Shown here in pieces: positions 7,099-49,461 of a stretch of DNA of 64,000 nucleotides. Position 1 is the stretch's first letter, and each line of letters opens with the position of its first letter. This DNA is from a phage. The position numbers and the translations under genes were made by a program. The notes under the pieces were generated by a model that was not told where the DNA came from, made no database searches, and was given only the letters and a program-made list of their open reading frames with translations. Location: assembly GCA_024449565.1 (NCBI GenBank), contig GCA_024449565.1_4810.1. One strand, given 5' to 3'.

Positions 7099-7174
7099 CT
7101 GCCGCGCAGGAGTGTACTGCCGCGCAGGAGTGTACTGCCGCGCAGGAGTGTACTGCCGCGCAGGAGTGTACTGC
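7099..7174. repeat. tandem repeat, 18-bp unit ctgccgcgcaggagtgta x4 plus partial fifth
   Basis: Four perfect head-to-tail copies at 7099-7170 followed by ctgc; each unit is a near-palindrome. Confidence 0.9.
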
Positions 7175-7551
7175 AAATTTCCTGTGGGTACAAAATAGTA
7201 CGGTACTGTCTAGGACTTTTTCTTTGAAAAGTTAGTGGACCAAATGTGTCGTATTTTGATTAGTGTACCGCAAATTCCATCAAGTAGCAAAACGCACCAA
7301 AAGACCCATGCCCTAAAAACCACACGAACGCAATAATCAATCGCCGTTACAGTTTCCAGCGTTACAATTAGAAAGCGAATGATTCGATGCATAATAATAT
7401 GAAGCATAATGATTCGAAAGCTAATGGTTGCGCGTAGGATGATATCGGGAGGGATTATTCGAGATGCGTGTAATTTCGCATGCGTACTATTTTCGGGCGA
7501 AGGGTCGGCATATTCTTCGTTTTAGCTCGGAACGAAGGGAAAGTTTTGCGC

Positions 7552-9760: not shown

Positions 9761-10024
9761 ATGAATACGCTTATTCTCATCGCTACGTTGTCCATCGGAA
9801 GTGGTCGCACCTTATCCCTTTATGACCATAGTGCAAATTGCGCCTATCCTACGCGCGTTGCGGCGATAGTTAATAGTGCAAATAAGATGCTATTCGAGAC
9901 TTGCTGGAGGGTCGATAACGAGAAAGGTCGGGTAGTCTTAGGCTATAGTGCAAATCTGCTGGTGGAGTCGTTCGATTGGACGGTTGAAGGTCGTAAATTG
10001 TTACGTAAAGTGACTAAAAGATGA
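9761..10024 (+). CDS. questionable ORF (87 aa) carrying three in-frame motif copies
   Basis: Weak RBS; three in-frame AGT-GCA-AAT (Ser-Ala-Asn) copies of the motif; may be non-coding. Confidence 0.3.
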   Translation: MNTLILIATLSIGSGRTLSLYDHSANCAYPTRVAAIVNSANKMLFETCWRVDNEKGRVVLGYSANLLVESFDWTVEGRKLLRKVTKR

Positions 10025-15477: not shown

Positions 15478-15516
15478 TCTCCTTTGCTTGATGAACTAAG
15501 TATAATACAGGCAAAT

Positions 15517-15545
15517 AAAAAGGCAAGCATTTAGCTCACCTTTTT
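15517..15545 (-). promoter_or_regulatory. 29-bp repeat element: imperfect terminator hairpin with sigma70-like promoter (copy A)
   Basis: Minus strand reads aaaaaggtgagctaaatgcttgccttttt then tgcctgTATTATACT; identical 28-29 bp at 16770-16797. Confidence 0.45.
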
Positions 15546-15548
15546 GAA

Positions 15549-16718: not shown

Positions 16719-16769
16719 AATCACCTCACTTGTTCGTCTTGATGAAAAGAGTATAATTATTGATAAAAG

Positions 16770-16797
16770 AAAAGGCAAGCATTTAGCTCACCTTTTT
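16770..16797 (-). promoter_or_regulatory. 29-bp repeat element: terminator hairpin plus promoter (copy B)
   Basis: Same sequence as 15517-15545, followed on the minus strand by AATTATACT -10-like box. Confidence 0.45.
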
Positions 16798-16802
16798 GAT
16801 AT

Positions 16803-26914: not shown

Positions 26915-27910
26915 ATGAACATGAAACAACCTGTAATGATTATCGGCGGCGGCTTGGCAGGACTTATTACCGCGTGTCACTTCCCGAACTCCATTGTGTA
27001 CGAAGCAGGGGAACGAGCGCCACAGCACAAGGCGCTGCTACGCTTTCGCGGCGAAGAAGTAAGCCGTATTACCGGAATCCCTTTTAAGGCCGTGACAGTT
27101 GACAAGGCTGTGTATTTTCGCGGTAACTACTATAACGACCATTGCCCAATCAACCTTGCCAATATGTATTCGATGAAGGTCACCAATCAGTTTGGTAGCC
27201 GTTCAATCATGAAGCTTAAAACTGCAACGCGTTATATTGCGCCGGACGACTTCTATGATCAGCTTGTCGATAAACTGGGTGATCGCATATTCTTCAATAC
27301 TCCGGTTGACACGCTTTGCGGCTATAGCGAGACGCCAATCATCAATACATCGCCGCTGCCAGTCATGATGAAGCTGGCAGGAATTGATCAAAATATTGAC
27401 TTTTCATTCGATAAAGCAAACATTCGCGTTTACCGCTTTAAGATTAAACGTAAGTGTGAACTGTATCAAACCATTTACTTTCCTGATTGCTCCGTCAGAA
27501 CTTACCGTGCATCAATCACTGGCGACACATTGATCATTGAAACAATTCCTTTGGTTAGCGTAAGTGAAGCCGCAGTTGAAGCCGCTGGCGGCATTACTCG
27601 TTACCGTGACATTAAGTTGCGTGCAGAAGTTGACGAAGTGTTGACGGCCTTTGGTCTTTCATGGAGTGACATTTCTCTCGAAGAAGTTGAAAAGGTCGAC
27701 CAGAAGTATGGCAAGATTGTCGACATTCCGAAAGACTTGCGACACGCTCTACTCCTACAGCTGACCATGGATTTGAACGTATTCAGTGTCGGTCGATTCG
27801 CTACTTGGCGAAACATTTTGCTTGATGACGTTGCTCATGACCTTGTTGAAGTTGAAAAACTCATCAAAGCAAATAACTATCAAAAATTTGCTTATATTGC
27901 TAATAAATAA
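26915..27910 (+). CDS. FAD/NAD(P)-binding oxidoreductase-like protein
   Basis: 331 aa; N-terminal dinucleotide-binding fingerprint VMIIGGGLAGLITA. Confidence 0.55.
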   Translation: MNMKQPVMIIGGGLAGLITACHFPNSIVYEAGERAPQHKALLRFRGEEVSRITGIPFKAVTVDKAVYFRGNYYNDHCPINLANMYSMKVTNQFGSRSIMKLKTATRYIAPDDFYDQLVDKLGDRIFFNTPVDTLCGYSETPIINTSPLPVMMKLAGIDQNIDFSFDKANIRVYRFKIKRKCELYQTIYFPDCSVRTYRASITGDTLIIETIPLVSVSEAAVEAAGGITRYRDIKLRAEVDEVLTAFGLSWSDISLEEVEKVDQKYGKIVDIPKDLRHALLLQLTMDLNVFSVGRFATWRNILLDDVAHDLVEVEKLIKANNYQKFAYIANK

Positions 27911-27918
27911 TTTGCTTT

Positions 27919-27955
27919 CTGCTTCAATGGGCGTATACTTTAATCATTGAAGCAG
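27919..27955 (+). other. 11-bp perfect inverted repeat (possible RNA processing or attenuator hairpin)
   Basis: ctgcttcaatg ... cattgaagcag with 15-nt loop; no T-run. Confidence 0.4.
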
Positions 27956-27976
27956 AACTCATAAGAGGAAACGAAA

Positions 27977-28423
27977 ATGAAACGCATCACTGGAATCGCG
28001 CTTGCCGCAACTGCTATTCTCGGAACCATGTATATGGAAGCGACTGAAGCTGCCATCCGTACTTCCGATTCAATCGCTGTTTACGATTGCGAAGCGATGG
28101 ACGGCAAGACCGCAGCGACGACTGGCGCAACAATTACCACTTACATCGGTGTGAACGAGCAGGAAGGTCTGAATATTCAGATTCAGGGATTCACCGGAAA
28201 AGGCGCCAACCGGACTCCGTGGATGCAGCGTTTCACTTTCGTTCAGCCTCGTTCGACTGGCGACTTTATTAACCTGATTGGTGAAAACCGTTCTGGTGCA
28301 GAAATCTTTACCTCAATGAGTTCTAATAATGAACCAAAGAAAAGTTTTCAGTTGCTTTATAACGCACAATTCGTTTATCATTGCACCTTCTCTGGTGATC
28401 AGCAACTAGTGAATTACCGTTAA
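27977..28423 (+). CDS. secreted protein with signal peptide (148 aa)
   Basis: AAGAGG RBS; N-terminal signal-peptide-like segment MKRITGIALAATAILGTMYMEATEAA; two Cys in the mature part. Confidence 0.6.
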   Translation: MKRITGIALAATAILGTMYMEATEAAIRTSDSIAVYDCEAMDGKTAATTGATITTYIGVNEQEGLNIQIQGFTGKGANRTPWMQRFTFVQPRSTGDFINLIGENRSGAEIFTSMSSNNEPKKSFQLLYNAQFVYHCTFSGDQQLVNYR

Positions 28424-28436
28424 TAGGATAATTAAA

Positions 28437-29246
28437 ATGAAAGTTGAATTAATTCGATACACCCAAGATGCACTTGACCTTTTGCTGGAAACAAAGAACA
28501 CGCGCATGACTGGTAAGCCAGTCTCTGAGATGACAGAATCAGAGAAGCAAGAGCACTGGCGCTACATGCTTGATACAATCAAGTCTCCTTTTGACTTTGT
28601 GGACTATATCTTTGATATCACAGCTGTATCAAAGAACATGACCCATCAGATGGTACGCACACGCACAGGCGCATATCAAGAACGCACCAGCCGCGCTCAG
28701 GAGTCGTCTGCATTTGATGCGATTCGTCCGAAGGCATTCGAGCACCCTTCTGACTGCAATGATGAAAATGCATTTGATGATGTGCACATAAGAAATCACT
28801 CATTGGCAGAGAAGTGGGATGATGCGATGGCCACGATTGACGCTCTATACCAAGAGCTTCGCGCGGCTGGCGCAGAGATTCAAGATGCACGTGCCGTGTT
28901 GCCTTCTAATATGCAAACGCATATCATGGCAAAGTTCAACTTGCGCACTCTACAACAAATGGCCTCTAACCGCTTGTGCACGCGTACTCAAGGCGAGTAT
29001 CAAGAAGTATTCCGTGCAATGGTTGCGGAAGTCCTTAAGGTGCACCCGTGGGCCAATCCTTTACTACAGCCGCAGTGCATCGGTATGGGTAAGTGTGCAT
29101 TTCCTCGTCACGGTAAGGCCCATTGCCCATGGTATCGTGATTGGATGGATACGACTGCACAGCAAGAAGAATTGCGCATTCAGTTTTGGGATGCCGCGCC
29201 AATCACCAACAATCCAGTTGCTAAAGATGGAGTATCAAAAGGATGA
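28437..29246 (+). CDS. thyX: flavin-dependent thymidylate synthase (ThyX)-like protein, divergent active-site motifs
   Basis: 269 aa; SPFDFVDYIFDITAVSKNMTHQMVRTRTGAYQERTSR matches the ThyX core, with RHR as RTR and SPFEH as SPFDF. Confidence 0.6.
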   Translation: MKVELIRYTQDALDLLLETKNTRMTGKPVSEMTESEKQEHWRYMLDTIKSPFDFVDYIFDITAVSKNMTHQMVRTRTGAYQERTSRAQESSAFDAIRPKAFEHPSDCNDENAFDDVHIRNHSLAEKWDDAMATIDALYQELRAAGAEIQDARAVLPSNMQTHIMAKFNLRTLQQMASNRLCTRTQGEYQEVFRAMVAEVLKVHPWANPLLQPQCIGMGKCAFPRHGKAHCPWYRDWMDTTAQQEELRIQFWDAAPITNNPVAKDGVSKG

Positions 29247-30115
29247 GCATTAAAAACAGCGAAATCTTAAATGTATTCGACCTTGACGGAACGCTGTTTG
29301 ATGACCGTTGGCGCTTAGACCGCATTAAGGTGGCAGGTCCGTTGTCAGACTATGATGATTATCACAGCGGTATTGGTTATGATCAGTTCTATCCTCACAT
29401 TGCATCAGCAGTAGAGTCGGCATCTCTTCGCGGTGAGGCGGTTGAATATTGGACTGCAAGGCCAGAAAAATACAGACAAGTGACTTTTGAACGTCTGGAC
29501 AATGTTTTTCCTTTTGATGAATTTACAATCAAGATGAGAGACTATGGCGACAAACGTCCATCAACTATTATGAAATCTGCATGGCTATCGCACGCATTGC
29601 GGCACGGCGATTATCGAATCATCAACGTATTCGACGACCGACAAGACGTACTCGCGCGGATGCAAGATGAAGCATTGTATTATAATTCCGTTGCTCAAAA
29701 TAAAATCGCTTTTACATTTAATCTTTGCAAGGCAGGTGAAGTGGTGCAACAATTAGCAATTGATCCAAGCGCAACAGGGCAAGAAGAGACTAAGGCTGTG
29801 GAAGTTGAACAATCTCCGGCAACTGCCGCCGATATTCTTGATGCAATGGCAGCAACCTTCCGTGAGCGCAACGCTGTCTATGGCGATAACGCTGTGATGG
29901 TAGGTCAGGTTATGCAAGTGCTTTTCCCTAATGGCGTGACGTTGAAAACGCCGGAAGACTACCACATGTGGCATCTGTTCGAGCTTAAGATTGTCAAGCT
30001 TACACGCTTCGCAATCAGCGGCCTGAAGCACGAAGACTCTATACACGATGATGGTGTTTACAGCGCCATGTGTGAACGTCTTGTTAACACCCATAATATT
30101 AATTTCAATAAATAG
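29243..30115 (+). CDS. HAD-superfamily phosphatase-like protein with unknown C-terminal domain
   Basis: 290 aa; HAD motif I FDLDGTLFDD at the N-terminus; start overlaps ThyX-like stop. Confidence 0.55.
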   Translation: MSIKNSEILNVFDLDGTLFDDRWRLDRIKVAGPLSDYDDYHSGIGYDQFYPHIASAVESASLRGEAVEYWTARPEKYRQVTFERLDNVFPFDEFTIKMRDYGDKRPSTIMKSAWLSHALRHGDYRIINVFDDRQDVLARMQDEALYYNSVAQNKIAFTFNLCKAGEVVQQLAIDPSATGQEETKAVEVEQSPATAADILDAMAATFRERNAVYGDNAVMVGQVMQVLFPNGVTLKTPEDYHMWHLFELKIVKLTRFAISGLKHEDSIHDDGVYSAMCERLVNTHNINFNK

Positions 30116-30144
30116 TTTACTTGTGCGTTTCGATGAGTTATATT
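30116..30144 (+). promoter_or_regulatory. sigma70-like promoter (TTTACT - 17 bp - TATATT) within conserved element
   Basis: Shares ~26 nt (GAGTyATAwTTAyyTCATCGAAACGAA) with the element upstream of 37108; overlaps an 11-bp perfect inverted repeat. Confidence 0.45.
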
Positions 30145-30180
30145 TATCTCATCGAAACGAAGTCCAAAAAGGATAAATAA

Positions 30181-30864
30181 ATGAAAAAAGTAATTGTTGT
30201 AACTGGCTGCAATTCCGGTCTTGGTAAGTCCATTTTTGACACCCTTGGCGCTTACGGTCATGAAGTTGTCGGTATTGATTTGGAGAACGGCTATGACATC
30301 CGTAACGCGAAACAGATGAAAGAGCTTCTCTCTCAATACGACGTAGAAGGCTTGATCAACTGCGCTGGCGTCAACTCCAACAACTGGTTCGAAGATGTTA
30401 ACTACGAAGAGTTCAATCGCGTTATGCACACCAACGCCTTCTCTTTCGTCAACACGACTCAGGCCGCGCTGAAAAGTCTTATTGACAACAAAGGTTTTGT
30501 GATCAACATCGTTTCCAACGCTGCGCATATTCCTATGACGTCCAGCTTGTGTTATAATGCTTCCAAGGCTGCTGCGCTCATGATTAGCAAGCAGATGGCT
30601 CACGAGCTTACGCCTAAATACGGGATCACGGTATTCTCTATTAGTCCTAACAAGCTACGTGGTACTGGCATGTCCAAACAGATTGAAGATGCTGTTTGCG
30701 CGACTCGCGGCTGGACTCCTGAATACGCTGCTGAATACCAGAAAAAGGCACTGATGAATGGATTGGAGACTGAGCCGCAAGTAATTGCTGACTTCATTCG
30801 CCATATCTTAATTACGGGCGCATGGCGCTTTATGTCTGGTACTGATATTCCATTTGGGAAATAA
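30181..30864 (+). CDS. short-chain dehydrogenase/reductase (SDR)
   Basis: 227 aa; cofactor motif VTGCNSGLGKS; catalytic YNASK (YxxxK). Confidence 0.75.
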   Translation: MKKVIVVTGCNSGLGKSIFDTLGAYGHEVVGIDLENGYDIRNAKQMKELLSQYDVEGLINCAGVNSNNWFEDVNYEEFNRVMHTNAFSFVNTTQAALKSLIDNKGFVINIVSNAAHIPMTSSLCYNASKAAALMISKQMAHELTPKYGITVFSISPNKLRGTGMSKQIEDAVCATRGWTPEYAAEYQKKALMNGLETEPQVIADFIRHILITGAWRFMSGTDIPFGK

Positions 30865-30867
30865 ATC

Positions 30868-31038
30868 ATGACTATCAAAGTTGTTGTAGAAGTGATTGGC
30901 GACGTAGCAGAAGTGAAGATTGATCAAGAAGGTGTTGGATTTGAAGTAATAAGAATCGAAAACGCAAAGATTAACCACGAGCGCGTCGGTTCCATTGAGA
31001 CTTATTCCATCGAAGGCAACACAGTAATTAATCAATAA
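30868..31038 (+). CDS. possible small protein (56 aa)
   Basis: ATG 30868 to TAA 31036-31038 encodes MTIKVVVEVIGDVAEVKIDQEGVGFEVIRIENAKINHERVGSIETYSIEGNTVINQ. Below track size cutoff. Confidence 0.4.
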   Translation: MTIKVVVEVIGDVAEVKIDQEGVGFEVIRIENAKINHERVGSIETYSIEGNTVINQ

Positions 31039-31058
31039 TATTTAATTAAGGAAACAAA

Positions 31059-31610
31059 ATGCCACATTTTAAAATTGAACAAATCGCCCTGTCAATCCCA
31101 GATGCTCAACGCGCTCAGGACTTCCTGGCTAAAATAGGCCTGACAGAATGGTTCCATGATCACGTTGTTGCTACTGGTCGCGTATTTGAAGCTGATTACT
31201 TTAAAGGTCAGCGCGGCGATTGCACCAATGAAGCTAACTTGCGCTTCAACTATCAGGCTGGCAACGGTACTGATGGCGGCGCTGGTAAGCCTCTTGAGCT
31301 TGAAATCCTTGACTATACAAAAGGTTGCAACTGGATTCGCGAAAACATCGAATACATCGATGCGCACGACAATCAGGTTAGCCATCTTGGTATGCACGTG
31401 ACTGCCGCTGAACTTGCTGAATGGCGCAAGTTCTTTAAAGAAGAAGGCATTCAGGTTGCGCAGGAAGTTGTGACCGACTCTCACACCAACCCAAACATTG
31501 CTGGTCAGCGTCGTTACAACTATGTAATCTTTGATACGCGTGAAATCATCGGCGTTGATTTGAAGTTTATCGTGCGGTTGAATCAAGACGGTACTCCGTA
31601 CACTGCATAA
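31059..31610 (+). CDS. VOC (glyoxalase/dioxygenase-like) family protein, tentative
   Basis: 183 aa; AAGGAAA RBS; N-terminal HFKIEQIALSIPDAQRAQDFLAKIGL resembles the VOC beta-alpha-beta-beta-beta signature. Confidence 0.45.
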   Translation: MPHFKIEQIALSIPDAQRAQDFLAKIGLTEWFHDHVVATGRVFEADYFKGQRGDCTNEANLRFNYQAGNGTDGGAGKPLELEILDYTKGCNWIRENIEYIDAHDNQVSHLGMHVTAAELAEWRKFFKEEGIQVAQEVVTDSHTNPNIAGQRRYNYVIFDTREIIGVDLKFIVRLNQDGTPYTA

Positions 31611-31626
31611 CGAATCTTGAATCTGT

Positions 31627-31651
31627 GGCCGTCCTAATGGGCGGCCTTTTT
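31627..31651 (+). terminator. intrinsic terminator after the enzyme cluster
   Basis: ggccgtcc/gggcggcc stem, loop taat, then ttttt. Confidence 0.55.
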
Positions 31652-31664
31652 GTAGGAGGCCAAT

Positions 31665-32207
31665 GTGTTATTTCTCCCTTATGACTTCGAAACAACAGGA
31701 TTAACCGTGCACCCGAAAGCGCCGCTTGGAATGCAGCCGCGCCCTATTGAATTTGCAGGGTTGTTGACGGACGGCAAAGAGATTCTTGAAACGTTCGAGT
31801 TCATAATTAATCCTGAAATTGTGATTGAAGAAATCATCACAAAGATTACCGGATTGACAAATGAAGACCTTGAGTGCAATCCACCATTCATCAATTTTGT
31901 CCCGCAGCTAAAAGAAATCTTCAAGAAGACGGATGCCACTATCGCGCACAACCATGCGTTCGATAAAAACATTCTTGATTATGCACTACAGCGCGAAGGA
32001 CTTACGCTTGATGATGTTAATTTTCCAGAAATAAACATTTGTACAGTTGAGCAAACCTTGCCTATTTTTGGCCGAAGAGTTAAGCTTCAAGAGCTGTATG
32101 AATTATATTTCGGAAAATATGAACAGAAACACCGTGCATTAGACGACGTAATATTACTGCACAAAGTCTGCCAACAAATTGGCGTATATGACATCTGGAG
32201 TAAATAA
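31665..32207 (+). CDS. DnaQ-like 3-5 exonuclease (DEDDh family)
   Basis: 180 aa; GTG start with AGGAGG RBS; Exo I FLPYDFETTGL, Exo II HNHAFDKNIL, Exo III HRALDDV. Confidence 0.8.
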   Translation: MLFLPYDFETTGLTVHPKAPLGMQPRPIEFAGLLTDGKEILETFEFIINPEIVIEEIITKITGLTNEDLECNPPFINFVPQLKEIFKKTDATIAHNHAFDKNILDYALQREGLTLDDVNFPEINICTVEQTLPIFGRRVKLQELYELYFGKYEQKHRALDDVILLHKVCQQIGVYDIWSK

Positions 32208-35104
32208 TGTTTCCACAATTGAGAGTTCGCAGCGGTTACACGTTCAAAGAAGTTTATGGACGGCATCCTGAAATTATAGCACGGCTCAAAGAGTTGGGCT
32301 GCGAAGTCGCGGCATTAGTTGATAACAACACATGGGGTCACGTTCGCTGGGAAAAGGAATGCCAGAAAAATGATATTAAGCCTATGTTTGGAATGGAGAT
32401 TCCAATCATCGACCCTGATGCGGACCCGAAAAAGGGATTCAAACCGAAGGCTTGGATATTGGCCCTTGACTTAAAATCTTTTTACAACGCTACAACACTT
32501 GCAACGCAGCGCGGTGGACTTACCCGTGCAGAGTTCGGTGCGCTTGATGGCGTCGTTAAATTCTGTGGCGGTGCCGTGGAGTTGCTGCGGCCAGAGGACT
32601 ACGACTATATAGACGTCAACCCATCATCGTTCCTTTTGGCAAAGCGCCAGGCATTGGCTCATCGTAGCAGTGGAAGGCCGCTGGTTTTAACCGGATACAA
32701 CCACATGCCTTCACCTGAGCACGTTGACTTTGCTTATGCGTGGGAAGTGCGCGACACGGTCAAGCCGCACTGCATCGTTGACGCGGAAGACTTGCGAAAA
32801 CAGCTTAAAGGCATCTTGACTGAAGATGAACTTGATCAGGCAACGGCCAATGCTGTTGACATAGCAAACGGCATAGTCGGACTTGACCTGAAATTACGCA
32901 AGGCACCGATTATTCACCTTGCTGGTGACATGGTAAAGCTTGCTCGCGAGGGTATGGAGTACCGTCTAAAAGCAGGTCACATCAAAGAATGGACTCAGGA
33001 ATACGAGGACCGCTTCAACGAAGAAATTCACCAGATTCAGCTGAAAGATTTCGACTCATACTTTCTGGTGGTAGCGGACCTTGTACGATTCGCAAAAACA
33101 AAAATGCTCGTCGGTCCTGCGCGCGGCTCATCGGCTGGTTCACTTGTTTGCTATTGCCTCGGCATCACGGAAGTGGACCCAATCCCGTATAAGCTGCTGT
33201 TTGCCCGATTCATCGACGTAAGCCGCGCCGACCTTCCTGACATCGACATCGACTTTGAAGATACCAAACGCTATATGGTGTTTGATTATCTTAAAGAGAA
33301 ATATGGCGAAATGAACGTTGCAAAGCTTGGCAACATCAACACGCTTAAGGCCAACTCAGTAATGGCTCAGGTTGGTAAGAAGTTCAACATTGGATATCAC
33401 GAAACAGCCAACATCAAAAACGCATTGCTTGAATACTCATCCGGTGACGCCCGTTATGGTCACGGTCTGGAGGATACCTTTGCAACAACGACCACGGGCC
33501 AAGAGTTCGTGGCGAAATATCCTGACGCCGCGCGATGCATGGGTGACCTTGAGATTCACCCTTCCCACACTGGCGTTCACGCAGCGGGAATCATTGTGTG
33601 TAATGACCCAATCTCTGATTACTGTACTGTAACTGCAGAAGGGATTGCGCAAATCGATAAGCCTGACAGCGAATACCTCAACCTTTTGAAGCTTGATGCG
33701 CTGGGCCTTCGTACTCTCGGTATTATTTCTGATACAGGCGTTATTGATGCTGAAACGCTCTACGGAATCAAGCTTGATGATCAAAGCGTCCTTGACATTC
33801 TTAACGAAAACAAGATGTCAGGCATCTTCCAGTTTGAAGGTGATGCTGTACGCTCAGTAACAAACTTTGTTCATGTCGATAACTTTAACAAAATCGACAA
33901 CCTGACAGCTTTGGGTCGACCTGGCCCGTTGTCATCCGGTATGGCCCAGAAATACATTGAACGCGCGGCAGGGCGTGCGCCGATTGAATACGACGTGCCG
34001 CAGCTTGAGCCGTACTTAAAAGAGACTTACGGCGTGTTTCTTTACCAAGAGCAAATCATGGCCGTGGTTAAAGAGATTGGTTCATTTGACTGGGCGAAAA
34101 CGTCCGCTGTGCGTAAGGCGATGTCAGGCCGTAAGGGTGAAGAATACTTTAACAAGCTTGGCGAGGACTTTGTTGCAGGCGCAATCAATAACGGCGTACC
34201 GGAAGCGGATGCAAGAAAGCTTTGGCAAGCAATGGCTACGTTCGGGTCATGGGGCTTTAACAAGTCGCACTCCGTGTCATACGCGGTCGTGACCTACTGG
34301 ACATTGTGGCTTAAGCGACACTACCCGTTGGAATTTGCCGCTGCCTGCTTACGCGCTGCTAAGGACGAAGACCAGACGATTGCGATATTACGTGAACTTG
34401 CGAAGGAAGGCGTGGATTACGTTCCAATCGACCCTGATCACTCTTCGATGAACTGGACCATCGCGAACGGAAAGCTAATCGGCGGCATTATGAACGCGAA
34501 AGGGTACGGAATGGTGAAGGCGATGAAGTACATCGAAGCGCGTGAAGCCGGAACCTTAACGCAGAAGCAAAAGGACGCATTGGCCAATGCTGAAGTAAAA
34601 TATGGCGACCTTACAGAGATGCACACAAAGTTCGGCTGGGCGTATAATGACCCGTATCTGATTGGCGTGACGTCCGGCGCTTCAATACGCCAGATGAAGG
34701 AAGTCGGTGATGACGAGCGCGCAATAGTAATCGGCAAGTTGACAAAGAAAGTGCTTGCGGACGAGAACGAAGCAACACGCATCCGTAAACGACTTGAGCG
34801 CGGCATCTATACAAAGCAAGGCAAGCTTAAAAAGGGTCTTCAAGCTGATGGCCGCTACGCAGAGTTTGACCAGTACGGGAACAAGCTTGAGACTCAGTTC
34901 ATCGACCTTATGTGCAAAGACGACTCGACCGACTCGCCAATGCGCTTCAGGATTCGTCCAGAGAAGTTCCAGAAGTACGGGAAGTACATCGCTGAAAACG
35001 TCGGGAACGGCGCATTCTTCCTGATGAAAGGTCGTAAGCTTGAAGGCATTGACATGTTCATCGTTGACGTGATCAAACAGGTGTATCCAGATGGCAACAA
35101 ATAA
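32207..35104 (+). CDS. dnaE: DNA polymerase III alpha subunit-like replicative polymerase (DnaE family)
   Basis: 965 aa; degenerate N-terminal PHP region; polymerase core GPARGSSAGSLVCYCLGITEVDP ... DLPDIDIDFE matches the DnaE palm motifs. Confidence 0.85.
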   Translation: MFPQLRVRSGYTFKEVYGRHPEIIARLKELGCEVAALVDNNTWGHVRWEKECQKNDIKPMFGMEIPIIDPDADPKKGFKPKAWILALDLKSFYNATTLATQRGGLTRAEFGALDGVVKFCGGAVELLRPEDYDYIDVNPSSFLLAKRQALAHRSSGRPLVLTGYNHMPSPEHVDFAYAWEVRDTVKPHCIVDAEDLRKQLKGILTEDELDQATANAVDIANGIVGLDLKLRKAPIIHLAGDMVKLAREGMEYRLKAGHIKEWTQEYEDRFNEEIHQIQLKDFDSYFLVVADLVRFAKTKMLVGPARGSSAGSLVCYCLGITEVDPIPYKLLFARFIDVSRADLPDIDIDFEDTKRYMVFDYLKEKYGEMNVAKLGNINTLKANSVMAQVGKKFNIGYHETANIKNALLEYSSGDARYGHGLEDTFATTTTGQEFVAKYPDAARCMGDLEIHPSHTGVHAAGIIVCNDPISDYCTVTAEGIAQIDKPDSEYLNLLKLDALGLRTLGIISDTGVIDAETLYGIKLDDQSVLDILNENKMSGIFQFEGDAVRSVTNFVHVDNFNKIDNLTALGRPGPLSSGMAQKYIERAAGRAPIEYDVPQLEPYLKETYGVFLYQEQIMAVVKEIGSFDWAKTSAVRKAMSGRKGEEYFNKLGEDFVAGAINNGVPEADARKLWQAMATFGSWGFNKSHSVSYAVVTYWTLWLKRHYPLEFAAACLRAAKDEDQTIAILRELAKEGVDYVPIDPDHSSMNWTIANGKLIGGIMNAKGYGMVKAMKYIEAREAGTLTQKQKDALANAEVKYGDLTEMHTKFGWAYNDPYLIGVTSGASIRQMKEVGDDERAIVIGKLTKKVLADENEATRIRKRLERGIYTKQGKLKKGLQADGRYAEFDQYGNKLETQFIDLMCKDDSTDSPMRFRIRPEKFQKYGKYIAENVGNGAFFLMKGRKLEGIDMFIVDVIKQVYPDGNK

Positions 35105-35513
35105 CCGTGAGCAGAAATACATATTCGTGCCTTTGAAGAAGCATTCAGAATCGGTATTGAAGCTTCAACGAATCGAGTCGATGACTGGTGATGGCGTGCC
35201 GGACGTAATCGGCACCAACCGGAAAGGGCGCGGCTTTTGGCTTGAAATGAAGTTCTTTGAATCGTGGCCTGCAAGGGCCACCACTGCACCTTTTAGAAAT
35301 GCATTTGAGAAAGGCCAATGCAGCTTTCTTTCTTCGTGGAATGATTGGAAATACCCATCATTTGTTCTGCTTAAGGTTGATTCTGAGAAGATGTTTTATT
35401 TAGTCCACCCTTCTATTGAATTAAAGCGTTATAATATTGCAGACGTTCAACGTGAGATAATCGTGAAGGGAACTATTCATCACATCATCAAGTATTTAGA
35501 GGAATTGTCATGA
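35091..35513 (+). CDS. PD-(D/E)xK nuclease-like protein (VRR-NUC-like), tentative
   Basis: 140 aa; GVPDVIGx(n)FWLEMK fits the PD...ExK pattern; overlaps DnaE end by 14 nt. Confidence 0.45.
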   Translation: MATNNREQKYIFVPLKKHSESVLKLQRIESMTGDGVPDVIGTNRKGRGFWLEMKFFESWPARATTAPFRNAFEKGQCSFLSSWNDWKYPSFVLLKVDSEKMFYLVHPSIELKRYNIADVQREIIVKGTIHHIIKYLEELS

Positions 35514-37033
35514 AAACACAAGGGATGCGCCACCAATTATTGGCGCTTGATAAAGCAGGTCGCAGAAAATACTTTGCTTATTTTATGGAGCAGGGTCTTG
35601 GCAAAACCTGGACTGCTTTGGCAGAGTTTGAAAAACACTTCGCCGCTGGCGCATTTGATGCCATGGTTATCATCGCTCCTAACGGTGTACACTCAAACTG
35701 GATTCGCCGTGAAGCACCAGAGCACCTTTCCATCAAATGGATTGGTCATTACTGGCGCGGCAATGACAAGATGAAAACTAAAAAGGGCAAAGCAATTTGG
35801 GAGAAGATGTTTGCTGATCACTATCCTGAAGGTGAAGTGCCTGCGCGCATCTTCTCATTCAACATTGACACGGTGAATACGCCAGTCGGTTATCAACACA
35901 TCGAATCGGTCCTGAAGAAGTATCGCTGTTTGATGATCATTGATGAATCGACGCGTATCAAAAATAACACAGCCAAACGCTCCATCAAGGTTGTAGAATT
36001 GGGACGGCTGGCAAAGGCCCGTCGAATCCTTTCTGGCACGCCGCTGCCACGCTCGCCTGCTGATATTTACATGCAGTATCACTTCCTTGAAGCTGGCTTG
36101 CTTGGCACCAAATCGTTCCGTGCATTCAACTCTGAATTCACAGTACTGCTTGAAGCGCACGACCCAGAGATGCAGGCCATTCTCAAGAAAATCGGCGGCA
36201 ACGGTTATGGCATTCCGCAAGTGCCGCGCAAAGACCAGTTTGGTCGACCGATGTACAAAAACCTTGACAAGCTTATCCGGCTGATGGAGCCGCACTATTT
36301 CCGCGCGACAAAAGCGGAATACTTGCCGGACCTTCCAGAGAAGGTGTACAAGTTTATCGACTTCGAGTTGTCGCCTAAGCAGCGCGATGTCTACGATGAA
36401 CTCAAGAATGAGTACAACTATCTGATGGAGTACAAAGGGGAAGAAGAAAACGTTAAGTTTGAGATGATCGCATCTCGCACTAAGATGAAGCAGGTGACAT
36501 CAGGCTTTGTTAAGGTATATGATGAGATGGTCTACATGGAAGACAACCCACGATTCACAGCCTTTAAGGATTATGTGGAAGGGGTGCTGGAAGACGACCC
36601 AGAGCGCAAATTCATTGTTTGGGCCATCTTTAAGGAAGAGATGAACCAGATTAAGGACTGGCTTGAGTCTGAAGGCGTGGTCACTGGTGTGTATAACGGT
36701 GAGACATCAAAAGAGCAGCGTGAGTTCTTGATTGATGATTTCCAGAAGAACACAGTCGAGAACGGTGGGACGCAAGTGTTGGTTTGTCACGCTGCAGCGG
36801 CAGGCATCGGGATCACGCTTACCGCCGCCGACTTGGCAATCTATTATTCTTGCAACTATGACAACGAGTTGCGCAAACAATCCGAAGACCGAAATCACCG
36901 CATCGGCACCAAATCAAGCGTGTTGTATGTTGATTTTATTGGGGTTGATACCATCGACGAAGAAATTCAGCGTTCATTAAGTATGAAGTCTATGCTTGCT
37001 GATCACATCCTCGACGGCAAAAAGATGAATTAA
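35510..37033 (+). CDS. SNF2/DEAD-like superfamily 2 helicase
   Basis: 507 aa; motif I EQGLGKT, motif II IIDESTRIKN, C-terminal helicase region. Confidence 0.8.
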   Translation: MKTQGMRHQLLALDKAGRRKYFAYFMEQGLGKTWTALAEFEKHFAAGAFDAMVIIAPNGVHSNWIRREAPEHLSIKWIGHYWRGNDKMKTKKGKAIWEKMFADHYPEGEVPARIFSFNIDTVNTPVGYQHIESVLKKYRCLMIIDESTRIKNNTAKRSIKVVELGRLAKARRILSGTPLPRSPADIYMQYHFLEAGLLGTKSFRAFNSEFTVLLEAHDPEMQAILKKIGGNGYGIPQVPRKDQFGRPMYKNLDKLIRLMEPHYFRATKAEYLPDLPEKVYKFIDFELSPKQRDVYDELKNEYNYLMEYKGEEENVKFEMIASRTKMKQVTSGFVKVYDEMVYMEDNPRFTAFKDYVEGVLEDDPERKFIVWAIFKEEMNQIKDWLESEGVVTGVYNGETSKEQREFLIDDFQKNTVENGGTQVLVCHAAAAGIGITLTAADLAIYYSCNYDNELRKQSEDRNHRIGTKSSVLYVDFIGVDTIDEEIQRSLSMKSMLADHILDGKKMN

Positions 37034-37046
37034 TATCAAAAATAAT

Positions 37047-37075
37047 TTGACTTGTCACGGAAGATGAGTCATAAT
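37047..37075 (+). promoter_or_regulatory. sigma70-like promoter (TTGACT - 17 bp - CATAAT) within conserved element
   Basis: Near-consensus hexamers; followed by TCATCGAAACGAA as at 30145-30160. Confidence 0.5.
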
Positions 37076-37107
37076 TACTTCATCGAAACGAAACAGAGGA
37101 ATACAAA

Positions 37108-37371
37108 ATGGTACGCATCCTTGAACGTTACAAAAATGAATCTACTGGCGCAATCGCTTTCAAACGTCTTTTGGTCAAAGAAATTGACGGTATGTTCCGC
37201 GTTGTTAAAGAGTTTGATTATGGCAACGGTGCTGGGGTGAATACCGTTATTATGCCTGGTATCAAGGCATATAAAACATTAAAAGGCGCTGAGAAGGCTT
37301 TGGCGGCTTGGAAGTCTGAACGTTATCAAATGACCCGTGTTGAAGGTCTAATGCAAGAAGGTAAAATATGA
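37108..37371 (+). CDS. hypothetical protein (87 aa)
   Basis: ORF track; AGAGGA RBS. Confidence 0.5.
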   Translation: MVRILERYKNESTGAIAFKRLLVKEIDGMFRVVKEFDYGNGAGVNTVIMPGIKAYKTLKGAEKALAAWKSERYQMTRVEGLMQEGKI

Positions 37372-37619
37372 GCAACAAAGTATTGTTAATTGGTCCGCCA
37401 GCTTGCGGCAAAACGACTAGCGCAAAGAATATTGCTGAAGTCATGGGATTGAATAACATTTACGACATAGGAAAGGGTGGAGAAGACAATTTTAAGTCCG
37501 CACTCAAAGATGACAAGGAAGGTCTTTATGTCACTGTGAAATTACCGCGCGGCATTCGCCGTGAACAATTTGATATTGTAATTGAAGTCAACAGAGGATT
37601 TATCGATGTCAGATATTAA
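37368..37619 (+). CDS. small P-loop-containing protein (83 aa)
   Basis: Walker A LLIGPPACGKTT; too short for a complete kinase or ATPase. Confidence 0.5.
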   Translation: MSNKVLLIGPPACGKTTSAKNIAEVMGLNNIYDIGKGGEDNFKSALKDDKEGLYVTVKLPRGIRREQFDIVIEVNRGFIDVRY

Positions 37620-38163
37620 TTGGGAAGATGATTTGCCGCAGGTTGCTCCTGAGAGCATTCAAGAGCGCCTTGCGCGCTTAGTATCGGAATTGGCAGAACG
37701 CCAAGAAGCTTTGACAGAGCTTGAAGATGAAGCTGATATGCAAAAGCAGCGCATCAGTGAAATCAAAACTGTTCTGCTTCCTGGTGTTATGGATGAGCTT
37801 GGCGTGTCCGAAATCAAGCTTGAAGACAAGACCAAAATCAAGGTCGAGTCAAAAGTGAATGCTTCAATCAAGAAAGAAAACGAATTAAAAGTTTTCGATT
37901 GGCTTGTCAACAACGGTTACGGCGGCCTGATCAAGTCCAGCGTCACGGCTGAGTTCGGTCGCGAAGAAATCGAACAGGCGCAAGAGATTGTTGCCGCACT
38001 GCGTGAAGATGGTGTTGAAGCCACATTGAAACAAGGCGTTCATTCTGCTACACTGAAGTCGTTTGTAAAAGAACAGCTGGAAGCAGGCAATCCAGTTAGT
38101 GAAGATATTAGCGTTTTTGAATACAAAGAAGCTAAAATAACCTTGCCTAAAAGCAAAAAGTAA
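37606..38163 (+). CDS. hypothetical acidic coiled-coil protein (185 aa)
   Basis: Start moved to ATG 37606 (MSDINWEDD...). Confidence 0.5.
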   Translation: MSDINWEDDLPQVAPESIQERLARLVSELAERQEALTELEDEADMQKQRISEIKTVLLPGVMDELGVSEIKLEDKTKIKVESKVNASIKKENELKVFDWLVNNGYGGLIKSSVTAEFGREEIEQAQEIVAALREDGVEATLKQGVHSATLKSFVKEQLEAGNPVSEDISVFEYKEAKITLPKSKK

Positions 38164-38222
38164 TTTAACCTTTATCTTGAAATCAGGTTGCCACGAAACT
38201 TGATACTATAGGAAAATATCAA

Positions 38223-39083
38223 ATGTCTAAGAAAGAAACTACCGAAGTTGCAGCGAAAAACACCCAGATGTCCGCTATGGCTGATTTTGTCGACATGACC
38301 GATTTTGGCGCTGGTTTTGAAGGTGCCGATGCCGATGCGTATGCCATTCCTTTTATCGTCGTACTGCAAAAGATGTCTCCGATGGTCGACGAAGATGATC
38401 CAAAACACGTGCCTGGCGCAAAAGCTGGTATGCTGTACAACACCGTTACTGGTGAGTTGTATGACGGCAAGAAAGGCGTGCAGATCATCCCTTGTGCATT
38501 CAAACGCACCTTCATCCTTTGGGGCGGTCGCGAGTCCGACGATAAAGGCTTTAAAGGTGAATTCACCAAAGAGCACGTTGATGCAGAAGTCGCGGCAGGC
38601 CGCGCTGTTGAAATCAACGGTAAGGTGTTTGTTCCAGACGAAAACGGCAAAGTGCACGAGAAAAAATCTCCTTACTATGCAGATACACGTAACCACTTCG
38701 TCATTCTGTTGAATGAAGAAACGGGTGAATTTGGCAGCGCCATGTTGTCTTTGACTTCTTCAATGATCAAGCCGTCTCGAATGCTGATGACCGCGCTACA
38801 GCAGAAGAAAGTTCAGACTCCGCAAGGTCTGAAAACGCCGCCGACCTTTATGAACATCGTTCGCATGGGTGCTGCATCCCAGTCCAAAGACGGCAACACC
38901 TGGTCCGTTCTGAAGTTTGAGCTGGAAGGTCTGGTGCAGGACAAAGGTCTGTACGAAGTCGCCAAAGCATTCCACAACGACGTGGTTGGCGGCAACGTTA
39001 ACATTGACCGCAGCAAGCAGGAAGAAGCAAGCGGTGCCGCTGGTCCTGTCAATGAAACTCCGACCGACGCAGAAGAGTTTTAA
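38223..39083 (+). CDS. putative single-stranded DNA-binding or annealing protein (acidic C-terminal tail ending in Phe)
   Basis: 286 aa; C-terminus ...NETPTDAEEF resembles SSB-type acidic tails; position within replication block. No fold-level evidence. Confidence 0.4.
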   Translation: MSKKETTEVAAKNTQMSAMADFVDMTDFGAGFEGADADAYAIPFIVVLQKMSPMVDEDDPKHVPGAKAGMLYNTVTGELYDGKKGVQIIPCAFKRTFILWGGRESDDKGFKGEFTKEHVDAEVAAGRAVEINGKVFVPDENGKVHEKKSPYYADTRNHFVILLNEETGEFGSAMLSLTSSMIKPSRMLMTALQQKKVQTPQGLKTPPTFMNIVRMGAASQSKDGNTWSVLKFELEGLVQDKGLYEVAKAFHNDVVGGNVNIDRSKQEEASGAAGPVNETPTDAEEF

Positions 39084-39099
39084 TCGACAATCAAATCAA

Positions 39100-39130
39100 C
39101 AAGGCTGCCGATTGGCGGCCTTTTATTTAT
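39100..39130 (+). terminator. weak terminator-like hairpin after 38223-39083
   Basis: gccg/cggc stem region followed by cttttatttatc. Confidence 0.3.
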
Positions 39131-39140
39131 CTGGTGCATC

Positions 39141-39659
39141 ATGATAGAAAGAATTGTACCGCTCCTGAAGATTCTGGCCCTTGTCGGCGCGTTTGCCGCT
39201 GGATCATACGTTGAAGACCTTAAGCAAACCAACGCATCACTGGCCAAGGATAATCAATATCTGACATCGCTTAATGAGCGTAAGGACAAGATAAATGCAC
39301 TCGAAGAGCAAATTGCAACTTTACAGGTTGAATCGGCATCGGCATATGAGAAGGGTCGCCAGGAAGCGCAACTGGTTGCTGATGACACTATTGCTCGTTA
39401 CAAGTCTGGGAATATCAAGCTGCGCGAGCAACTCAGCTGCTCCCGTGAGTTACTCAGGAGTGTGCCCGACTCTGCGACCACTGGACGCCTCTCTATCCCA
39501 GAAGGAAACTGTGGACTATCAGAAGAAGATGTCAGATTTCTTGTTCAGTTCGCCGCAGAAACAAATCGATTAAAAGAGAAAGTTAATAGCTTGATTGATA
39601 CTTATAATCAGGCTAAAATAAAAATCGATCAATTCAATGCATCAAAGGAAAATAAATGA
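39141..39659 (+). CDS. i-spanin-like protein (Rz-like): N-terminal TM anchor plus coiled coil
   Basis: 172 aa; TM helix IVPLLKILALVGAFAAGSYV then coiled-coil region; contains embedded lipoprotein ORF in another frame. Confidence 0.5.
   Translation: MIERIVPLLKILALVGAFAAGSYVEDLKQTNASLAKDNQYLTSLNERKDKINALEEQIATLQVESASAYEKGRQEAQLVADDTIARYKSGNIKLREQLSCSRELLRSVPDSATTGRLSIPEGNCGLSEEDVRFLVQFAAETNRLKEKVNSLIDTYNQAKIKIDQFNASKENK
39346..39573 (+). CDS. o-spanin-like outer-membrane lipoprotein (Rz1-like), embedded in alternate frame
   Basis: Track ORF 39295-39573; lipoprotein signal with lipobox-like LVTSLGISSC; entirely inside the i-spanin-like gene. Start codon uncertain. Confidence 0.45.
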   Translation: MRRVARKRNWLLMTLLLVTSLGISSCASNSAAPVSYSGVCPTLRPLDASLSQKETVDYQKKMSDFLFSSPQKQID

Positions 39660-48679: not shown

Positions 48680-49428
48680 TCTATCATATTCCCAGTTCTG
48701 TTTCCAGGCCCGTTACCGATATGCCCGTGAGTGGATACATCAATGCCGCCGACCGTTGTGCCAGTCGGAAGCGTTGCCGTCGTTCCTTCTTTGCCTTCTA
48801 TCCCACCATTGAATGTTGCCTTTCCATTTACTATCAATTGTTGATCGATAGTGGTTATCGGGGTCTTGACGTTTACTCCAGCAGACGCAGTTATGTTTAT
48901 TGAGTCATCGCTTAGTGCAATTCTCACAGCGCCGCTGAGGGATTGAATTACCATTGACCCTGCATCCTCTCCGCTTATGGTGTATTTTCGGAATACATCC
49001 GGTATGAACAGTCCATCAGCGAAAGTTTTTACACGGCCATTGGTAGGCGCGGTCGGCTTCAATTCTTCAAGGAATGTCGACAACTCGCGGTCGCCAGCGA
49101 ATATCCAGCCCAAGTCGCCTTCCTTCAAAGGGAAGTTGATCACGAATCCGCCGCCGCCGATTGCCAGTACCGGAATTGACACCAAAGGTTGACGCTCCAC
49201 TGGCTTATCATCAAGACTTACGAAATGAATAACAGGTTTTATGACTGCTAAATTTTTCTTGCGGTCATAAGATATTACTTGCGCAGGAATCATACCATCA
49301 GTGGTATACTTGCCACGGTCCAGCATTCCCTGAAGCGCGGCAAACATACTTGATTTGTCAGTTTGGTTGGGGCTTGTAAGTTGGGTTAACTTTTCTGCCA
49401 TCATAGACTCCTTATATCTGATCAACAA
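48676..49428 (-). CDS. baseplate component, tentative (250 aa)
   Basis: Gly/Thr-rich C-terminus; position in baseplate block. Context only. Confidence 0.4.
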   Translation of the reverse strand: MLIRYKESMMAEKLTQLTSPNQTDKSSMFAALQGMLDRGKYTTDGMIPAQVISYDRKKNLAVIKPVIHFVSLDDKPVERQPLVSIPVLAIGGGGFVINFPLKEGDLGWIFAGDRELSTFLEELKPTAPTNGRVKTFADGLFIPDVFRKYTISGEDAGSMVIQSLSGAVRIALSDDSINITASAGVNVKTPITTIDQQLIVNGKATFNGGIEGKEGTTATLPTGTTVGGIDVSTHGHIGNGPGNRTGNMIE

Positions 49429-49461
49429 ATTATAATCTATAAGGAGTCTATAAGCAATATT

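Follow-up and report, generated by a model that had tools for sequence, protein, structure and literature searches.

Two internal promoters of a Wifcevirus genome as probable copies of a sigma-70 promoter-plus-leader module of PB1-like phages

What does it mean that two rightward genes of a phage genome are preceded by almost the same sequence? The case arises in a stretch of 64,000 nucleotides (NCBI GenBank assembly GCA_024449565.1, contig GCA_024449565.1_4810.1), analysed as a whole and hereafter called the window. The first gene encodes a FabG-like short-chain dehydrogenase/reductase (SDR; Pfam adh_short at 1e-31), the second a protein of 87 amino acids (aa); the sites upstream of them are denoted S1 and S2. 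The original prediction had reported that both upstream sequences are nearly identical and that both carry -35-like hexamers at a spacing of 17 bp (TTTACT/TATATT and TTGACT/CATAAT); the resemblance is real, its positions were right within 1 nt, and the hexamers are seen at both sites. From sequence comparison we assign a probability of about 80% to the reading that S1 and S2 are two copies of a host sigma-70 promoter-plus-leader module typical of the PB1-like lineage (Pbunavirus, Wifcevirus, Kylevirus and Myosmarvirus). The 12-kb stretch of the window around both sites is 94-97% identical to Wifcevirus myophages of Escherichia coli and Shigella, the close relatives being TH35, Bas98-101, FEC19, WFC, WFH and vB_Eco4M-7; Pantoea phage Kyle, the Serratia Myosmarvirus phages and the Pseudomonas Pbunavirus (PB1-like) phages are more distant. 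Judged by this identity, the window belongs to a Wifcevirus myophage infecting E. coli. The parts of the two sites are as follows.

30098..30115, plus strand: AT-rich stretch in the position of an UP element, 5' of the S1 -35 (a sequence reading)
30116..30121, plus strand: S1 -35 hexamer TTTACT, matching the CTTTACT -35 consensus of mapped sigma-70 promoters of Pseudomonas phage 14-1
30139..30144, plus strand: S1 -10 hexamer TATATT, in the loop of an inverted repeat
30149..30161, plus strand: S1 start-site and initial-transcribed motif TCATCGAAACGAA; predicted transcription start site (TSS) A30151, by homology to the 14-1 promoters P001, P028 and P049
30151..30180, plus strand: predicted 30-nt 5' leader of the SDR (FabG-like) mRNA, with Shine-Dalgarno (SD) sequence AAGGA at 30169-30173 and ATG at 30181
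37047..37052, plus strand: S2 -35 hexamer TTGACT
37070..37075, plus strand: S2 -10 hexamer CATAAT, with the spacer motif GGAAGATGAGT immediately 5'
37080..37092, plus strand: S2 start-site and initial-transcribed motif TCATCGAAACGAA; predicted TSS A37082, by homology
37082..37107, plus strand: predicted 26-nt 5' leader of the mRNA of the 87-aa gene, with SD sequence AGAGGAA at 37095-37101 and ATG at 37108

Both sites follow the common scheme TTKACT-N17-(-10)-N4-TCATCGAAACGAA, with spacers of 17 nt and with TATC (S1) or TACT (S2) between the -10 and the motif. In an ungapped comparison from -35 to +11 (30116-30161 against 37047-37092), 34 of 46 positions are identical, rising to 26 of 30 in the core 30-mer; the AT-rich stretches further upstream (30098-30115 and 37029-37046) match at 13 of 18 positions by manual count, the former overlapping the 3' end of a polynucleotide-kinase-like gene (stop codon 30113-30115). 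The hallmarks of sigma-70 promoters are present at both sites, namely hexamers resembling TTGACA and TATAAT, a -10 whose second base is A and whose sixth is T, and a spacer within 17 +/- 1 bp; S1 agrees with the consensus hexamers at 9 and S2 at 10 of 12 positions. The likeness nevertheless exceeds what a common consensus provides, because three results single out this pair. The pattern TTKACTTGT-N7-GATGAGTYATAWTTA matches S1 and S2 alone in the window (0 matches expected in shuffles). The exact 13-mer TCATCGAAACGAA occurs on the plus strand of the window at S1 and S2 only, its sole match with one mismatch being the left arm of the S1 inverted repeat, on the minus strand. Finally, when 18 intergenic promoter-like sites were aligned on the -10 and compared with both hexamers left out, S1/S2 was the top pair of 153 (22 of 32 positions; mean 8.9, standard deviation 2.9). 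A GATGAGT-like third match at 10020 was dropped since the downstream motif is missing. The whole genome of Bas98 likewise holds copies of the 13-mer or its half-site at S1 and S2 only, and a scan of IMG/VR for GATGAGTNATANTTANNTCATCGAAACGAA returned four Wifcevirus contigs with two copies each; this exact form was not found there in phage groups beyond Wifcevirus.

The evidence that identifies the shared sequence comes from Pseudomonas phage 14-1, a distant relative that belongs to Pbunavirus. A scan of its genome for TCATCGAAAC gives three matches, all on the minus strand (700-709, 49227-49236 and 65233-65242), which share CTTTACT, 17 nt, a -10 (TATAGT, TAATAT or CATAAT), 4 nt and TCATCGAAACGCGAAAC; in all three, TCATCGAAACGCGAAAC is followed by a conserved leader that runs to AAAAGGA. 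Table S3 of the Oxford Nanopore Technologies (ONT)-cappable-seq study of this phage lists TSSs at 707 (P001), 49234 (P028) and 65240 (P049) (Putzeys et al. 2024, PMC10914365), and the three promoters are typed there as sigma-70 (Table S3 of bioRxiv 10.1101/2023.10.13.562163, the same work as PMC10914365). Each mapped TSS falls exactly on the A of TCATCG. According to the same source, P001 cloned from -50 to +1 only drives strong msfGFP expression in E. coli and Pseudomonas aeruginosa, and in the E. coli reporter it is active without phage proteins (PMC10914365). Its motif analysis is described in the supplement as covering 50-bp upstream regions, and the parts of the paper that were read do not mention the common leader motif (PMC10914365).

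The window sites repeat the order and spacing of P001, P028 and P049: (C)TTTACT, 17 bp, -10, 4 nt, TCATCGAAACG, start at A. S1 reads TATATT-TATC-TCATCGAAACG behind gTTTACT, S2 reads CATAAT-TACT-TCATCGAAACG behind the variant TTGACT at the same distance, and the A located 7 nt after the -10 at both sites is the counterpart of the TSS mapped in the three 14-1 promoters. In this respect the shared initiation region at TCATCGAAACGAA that the original prediction had suggested is supported by homology. Further common traits are the presence of several copies per genome and a location in replication and early modules. The short A-rich leader, which in 14-1 runs to AAAGGA, agrees in part: with respect to CAAAAGGA before the ATG in 14-1, the end of the S1 leader, CCAAAAAGGAT, is a good match and that of S2, ACAGAGGAAT, a partial one, whereas the mid-leader differs: the 14-1 leader goes on as CGCGAAACCCTTCAA, and the window has GAAGTCC or GAAACAG. 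The copies also differ in that the -35 of S2 is TTGACT, 14-1 has no SDR gene, and the promoter positions are not the same; P028 is equivalent to a further site of the window, S0 (see below), and to neither S1 nor S2. The positional counterpart of S2 in 14-1 is P025, located after the helicase gene (mapped TSS 40195), which reads GGAAGATGCGG-CATAAT where S2 reads GGAAGATGAGT-CATAAT, such that spacer and -10 are shared. The transcription unit of P025 ends at a terminator after two genes, and these genes and the terminator are matched to the S2 unit.

Conservation beyond the genus points to the transcribed side of the module. The S1 counterparts in Kyle and in two Serratia phages, MyoSmar and MTx, have retained TATCTCATC..AAACGAA or TATCTAATTTCAACGAAG downstream of the -10, with TATTCT-TATC-TCATCTTAAACGAACG in Kyle and GATAAT-ATATC-TAATTTCAACGAAGT in MyoSmar and MTx; a related start region is thus kept next to unrelated spacers. 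A comparison of five divergent Pbunavirus genomes shows no change in the P028 module over the 43 nt from -6 to the ATG, in contrast to variation 5' of the -35, within the spacer and at the -10. The motif is found at promoters that are not equivalent across genera (P001, P028 and P049 in 14-1; S1 and S2 in Wifcevirus), and within the window the start pattern TAnnnT-N4-TCATYRA has 6 matches where 0.69 are expected. The cross-genus retention, the invariant Pbunavirus leader, the non-equivalent positions and the excess of matches together suggest selection on the downstream shared segment. The S2 counterparts in other genera (P025 of 14-1, Kyle and MyoSmar) are without TCATCGAAACG, and S2 therefore probably acquired the motif by conversion from its sister promoter or by convergence. 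The search for further copies that the original prediction had called for was productive, with diverged copies at the predicted start 27946 and, on the minus strand, at 16733-16745; a related site is found in the same leftward early region.

27911..27957, plus strand: S0, diverged third copy TTTGCT-N17-TATACT-TTAA-TCATTGAAGCAG, predicted TSS A27946
16733..16755, minus strand: diverged copy TATACT-CTTT-TCATCAAGACGAA (motif at 16733-16745), in the leftward early region
about 15482-15504, minus strand: related site TATACT-TAGT-TCATCAAGCAAAGG, in the leftward early region

The start region of S0, TCATTGAAGC at 27944-53, precedes the gene at 27977, and its genomic position is that of the mapped promoter P028 of 14-1. 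The leftward early region also holds a 35-nt repeat, 94% identical between its copies (15513-15547 and 16765-16799, functioning on the minus strand), which consists of an imperfect hairpin and a T-run overlapping the -35 (TTGCCT) of two promoters in this region, both of which begin with TCATCAAG.

In the favoured reading, host RNA polymerase with sigma-70 would bind the -35 (TTTACT/TTGACT) and the -10 (TATATT/CATAAT) across the 17-bp spacer and would start at the A of TCATCG, that is, by homology, at A30151 and A37082. The mRNAs would open with AUCGAAACGAA, and their leaders, short, rich in A and with essentially no structure, would end in the SD sequence; the predicted structure of the S1 leader (30151-30215) is slight (-7.2 kcal/mol, z -0.5) and that of the S2 leader is not significant. 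Judging from the P001 reporter, no phage factor should be needed for activity. The conserved segment from -6 to +11 would most likely act at initiation or on the RNA, with the choice of start site, promoter escape, mRNA 5'-end properties or translation as possible roles. Such a role is favoured because the conservation falls on the transcribed part and, in Pbunavirus, extends over the entire leader. In the virulent coliphages T5 and T7, the strong host-polymerase promoters PN25 and A1 have initial transcribed sequences that tune promoter escape. They resemble S1 and S2 as sigma-70 promoters of lytic phages with an AT-rich upstream region, and productive initiation from them is influenced by the first 10-20 transcribed bases; they differ in that there is no sequence similarity, and an effect of AUCGAAACGAA on escape is hypothetical.

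A number of points weigh against this reading. The TSSs in the window are assigned by homology to a phage that infects a different host, and a literature search for transcript-start data from Wifcevirus found none. The P001 reporter did not include the leader (PMC10914365), which is therefore dispensable for basal activity. The hexamers of S1 are only moderate matches to the consensus. Across 15 Wifcevirus genomes the 13-mer varies, with one change each in the S1 copies of Bas99 and Bas101, and the S2 element of Bas101 has two changes, one of them inside the 13-mer; the Wifcevirus genomes are moreover about 95% identical, so that conservation within the genus is little informative.

A feature that separates the two sites is the inverted repeat at S1. 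The original prediction had placed an 11-bp repeat at 30121-30152 and had described the element as part of it. The repeat exists, its extent does not hold: it is perfect over 12 bp, is confined to S1 and does not belong to the shared element.

30126..30137, plus strand: left arm CGTTTCGATGAG of the 12-bp perfect inverted repeat at S1, inside the promoter spacer; predicted to be in read-through RNA only
30148..30159, plus strand: right arm CTCATCGAAACG, at -3 to +9 relative to the predicted start

The arms enclose a 10-nt loop that contains the -10, and the predicted hairpin is strong as RNA (-22.1 kcal/mol, z -5.9) and as DNA (-12.7 kcal/mol, z -7.8). At S2 the repeat is represented by GATGA/TCATC only, a 5-bp dyad, and the fold is not significant (z -1.1 as RNA, +0.45 as DNA). 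Since the predicted start lies in the right arm and the left arm upstream of it, the S1 hairpin would form only in read-through transcripts and would mark these as distinct from promoter-initiated RNA. The stem is A+T-rich, is followed by AAGTCCAAAAA and no U-tract, and is absent from the terminator scan list; an intrinsic terminator at S1 was rejected, as both a G+C-rich stem and a U-tract are lacking. An Rfam scan of 27500-39500 with E-values up to 1 matched no family. Only two stem substitutions occur in the 15 Wifcevirus genomes, both C-to-T changes in the right arm that keep G.U pairs in the plus-strand RNA, which is weak evidence for retention of the hairpin in RNA.

Three other explanations of the S1/S2 similarity have to be weighed. 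The most far-fetched is that the shared feature is an RNA structure (a processing site, attenuator or terminator) and not a promoter. The strength of the S1 hairpin and the frequency of intercistronic hairpins in phage operons speak for it, but S2 does not fold, and hence the hairpin cannot be the shared element; the missing U-tract excludes an intrinsic terminator, no Rfam family matches, and the homologous sites of 14-1 are primary 5' ends enriched by cappable-seq. Rather unlikely, if less so, is that GATGAGT-(-10)-TCATCGAAACGAA is an operator, where a phage or host protein covering the -10 and +1 switches both promoters together and the S1 palindrome is the full dimer site. S1 indeed has a perfect 12-bp palindrome centred on the -10, GATGA/TCATC is retained at S2 in the same register, and the motif overlaps the usual place of repressor action. 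Against this, S2 has just the 5-bp symmetric core without the outer left half-site, there are only two exact copies per genome, and the left arm is missing from the copies in Kyle, MyoSmar and 14-1, in which right arm and leader are retained. The block conserved in Pbunavirus spans the whole leader to the ATG, which suits a role in RNA or initiation better than an operator of about 20 bp, and the homologous P001 is constitutive in uninfected cells. Neither dyad symmetry at every regulated site nor a cognate DNA-binding protein was found: none of the 57 uncharacterised small open reading frames (ORFs) matches any Pfam family, PHROGs assigns the uncharacterised ORFs only to families without listed function and to one Rz-like spanin, and the annotations of Bas98 and WFH list no regulator, though a novel DNA-binding fold may be among the small ORFs. 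A BLAST search of the S1 module in 5,426 complete E. coli genomes (E-values up to 10) gave no match, hence the module is, by this comparison, neither host-derived nor a mimic of a host site. To our knowledge, the motif is unlike the E. coli sites of PurR, Cra, GalR/LacI, ArgR, DnaA and IHF. The palindrome centred on the S1 -10 recalls lambda-type operators that overlap promoters; unlike these, it has no second copy and is not kept in related genera, and no repressor gene is recognisable. The regulator-binding alternative of the original prediction thus finds no support, and the conserved segment from -6 to +11 probably does not act as a protein operator.

The third explanation, improbable but the least so of the three, is that the additional likeness reflects history alone: duplication or gene conversion would have copied one promoter onto the other, and the bases shared outside the hexamers would have no function of their own. 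S2 does look chimeric, its upstream half old and its downstream half S1-like: its spacer GGAAGATG resembles that of P025, its counterparts in 14-1, Kyle and MyoSmar lack TCATCGAAACG, and the similarity to S1 extends into the AT-rich stretch upstream. A purely historical origin is difficult to reconcile with a start and leader motif that is kept from E. coli to Pseudomonas phages, whose helicase genes have about 65% DNA identity over the aligning part, that occurs at non-equivalent promoter positions in different genera, and whose leader is invariant in divergent Pbunavirus while the neighbouring promoter bases vary. Conversion and selection are not mutually exclusive.

We consider the promoter-embedded hairpins a more unusual lead than the shared promoter module itself. 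S0 has a perfect inverted repeat of 13 bp (27917-27929 and 27945-27957) with its TATACT -10 in a 15-nt loop; its sequence differs from that of the S1 repeat. An inheritance of both as one hairpin with compensatory changes was rejected, as the symmetry axes are one base apart, and the two are taken as separate solutions. A further case is found upstream of the baseplate-spike gene.

49400-49457, minus strand: promoter-like site TTGCTT-N17-TATAAT upstream of the baseplate-spike gene

This site carries a 14-bp perfect inverted repeat (49403-49451, minus strand), whose left arm (49451-38) is the promoter spacer and is predicted to act as an anti-Shine-Dalgarno sequence, and whose right arm (49416-03) comprises the SD sequence and the 'AT' of the ATG. 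The predicted folds amount to -26.7 kcal/mol in read-through RNA and -2.2 kcal/mol in RNA from the predicted start. For the equivalent promoter of 14-1, P018, a TSS is mapped at 28318 and validation in a reporter is described (PMC10914365). P018 has the same layout with unrelated sequence, GGGAAGGCT pairing with AGGCTTTCCC right before the ATG. Perfect inverted repeats of at least 12 bp with loops of at most 21 nt number 4 in the window, where about 0.08 are expected by the author's estimate, an excess of about 50-fold.

The fold-back inhibition of IS10/Tn10, associated with Davis, Simons and Kleckner (1985), reportedly guards the element against outside transcription. S1, S0 and the baseplate-spike promoter have an IS10-like layout, with one arm upstream of their own start and the other in the leader, such that the hairpin would form only in transcripts from outside. 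The translation block that defines fold-back inhibition is a different matter: a 3' arm that sequesters the ribosome-binding site or start codon is predicted at 49403-49451 and is not present at S1. There the right arm stops at 30159, which leaves about 9 nt to the SD sequence at 30169-73, the ribosome-binding site is not buried, and the predicted structure around the SD sequence is the same in read-through and promoter-started RNA; for these reasons S1 is not filed under fold-back inhibition. A tentative proposal, which we hold more doubtful than not, is that inverted repeats between spacer and leader in PB1-like phages make read-through and promoter-started RNA behave differently, that the S1 and S0 hairpins act by processing or stability instead of occlusion of the ribosome-binding site, and that the 5' end AUCGAAACG is a functional mRNA tag for stability, translation or promoter escape.

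Palindromes within promoters are also seen in the replication clusters of MyoSmar (L040) and Kyle (L020), where many promoters have a G+C-rich palindrome in the 17-bp spacer that often overlaps the -35 and -10 (for example CTTGACGCCTCCAATTGGAGGCGTTATTAT). Followed by the T-rich -10, this palindrome looks like an intrinsic terminator that overlaps the next promoter. The spacer motif AGGA(A/T)G(A)TG recurs across genera.

S1 and S2 sit within a rightward DNA-metabolism cluster, without a terminator upstream, whose order is thymidylate synthase, polynucleotide-kinase-like, SDR (FabG-like), exonuclease, DnaE-type polymerase, helicases, and genes like Pam3 gp33 and gp34. From S1, additional transcripts would extend to the terminator at 31627 and cover the SDR gene, a small ORF and a weakly glyoxalase-like gene; those from S2, bounded by the terminator at 39101, would cover the 87-aa gene, a P-loop ORF, a DUF7307 gene and a Pam3_Gp34-like gene.

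31627..31646, plus strand: terminator-like hairpin GGCCGTCC..GGGCGGCC followed by a T-run, probably closing the S1 transcription unit
39101..39122, plus strand: terminator-like hairpin, probably closing the S2 transcription unit

The annotation of phage WFH has a terminator at the place equivalent to 31627..31646, and the 14-1 unit TU026, from P025 to terminator T008, has the same layout as the S2 unit up to 39101-39122. Between the SDR and the weakly glyoxalase-like gene, the small-ORF content of 30865-31058 varies among Wifcevirus (compared with L002 5872-6257 and L052 2869-3039), making this a variable cargo spot within the S1 transcription unit. In the S2 operon, an extra 83-aa ORF with a P-loop match (AAA-like N-terminal; 37368-37619, plus strand) lies within a 238-nt insertion absent from phages WFH and Bas98; the DUF7307 gene downstream of it has its true start at about 37606.

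Two other repeat regions of the window are noted. The segment 63858-63977, read on the minus strand, is an iteron-like cluster with several occurrences of ATCCGTATC and two of AGCGCGGCT(T)ATA, and it also holds a 13-bp perfect inverted repeat (63887-99 and 63910-22). It lies just upstream of a strong promoter-like sequence TTGCCT-N17-TATAAT (63819-63791) that heads the late structural operon, and could be a regulator-binding or packaging region. At 7099-7188 an 18-nt unit, CTGCCGCGCAGGAGTGTA, is repeated in tandem, three copies being complete and a fourth reduced to its first 4 bases, without any mismatch.

Among the papers listed in a literature search for the motif string, it occurred in unrelated primers only. 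Intergenic motifs of PB1-like phages are mentioned, without names or printed sequences, in the JG024 paper. In the literature searched, the conserved initial-transcribed and leader segment was not found described; the promoter class itself, sigma-70-type promoters of virulent phages, is known. The results do not overturn current views and amount to a solid annotation that is fairly ordinary and holds no surprise. Wifcevirus gains two internal promoters with starts predicted to the single nucleotide, together with a usable promoter pattern: (C)TTTACT or TTGACT, 17 bp, -10, 4 nt, TCATC. What had not been pointed out in the literature checked is that a promoter-plus-leader cassette is kept from Pseudomonas to E. 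coli phages with its transcribed part best conserved. As its 14-1 homologue is strong in both hosts, the cassette is a candidate portable expression part, and the hairpins whose arms lie in spacer and leader offer a testable idea of how read-through and promoter-driven expression may be kept apart in dense phage operons.

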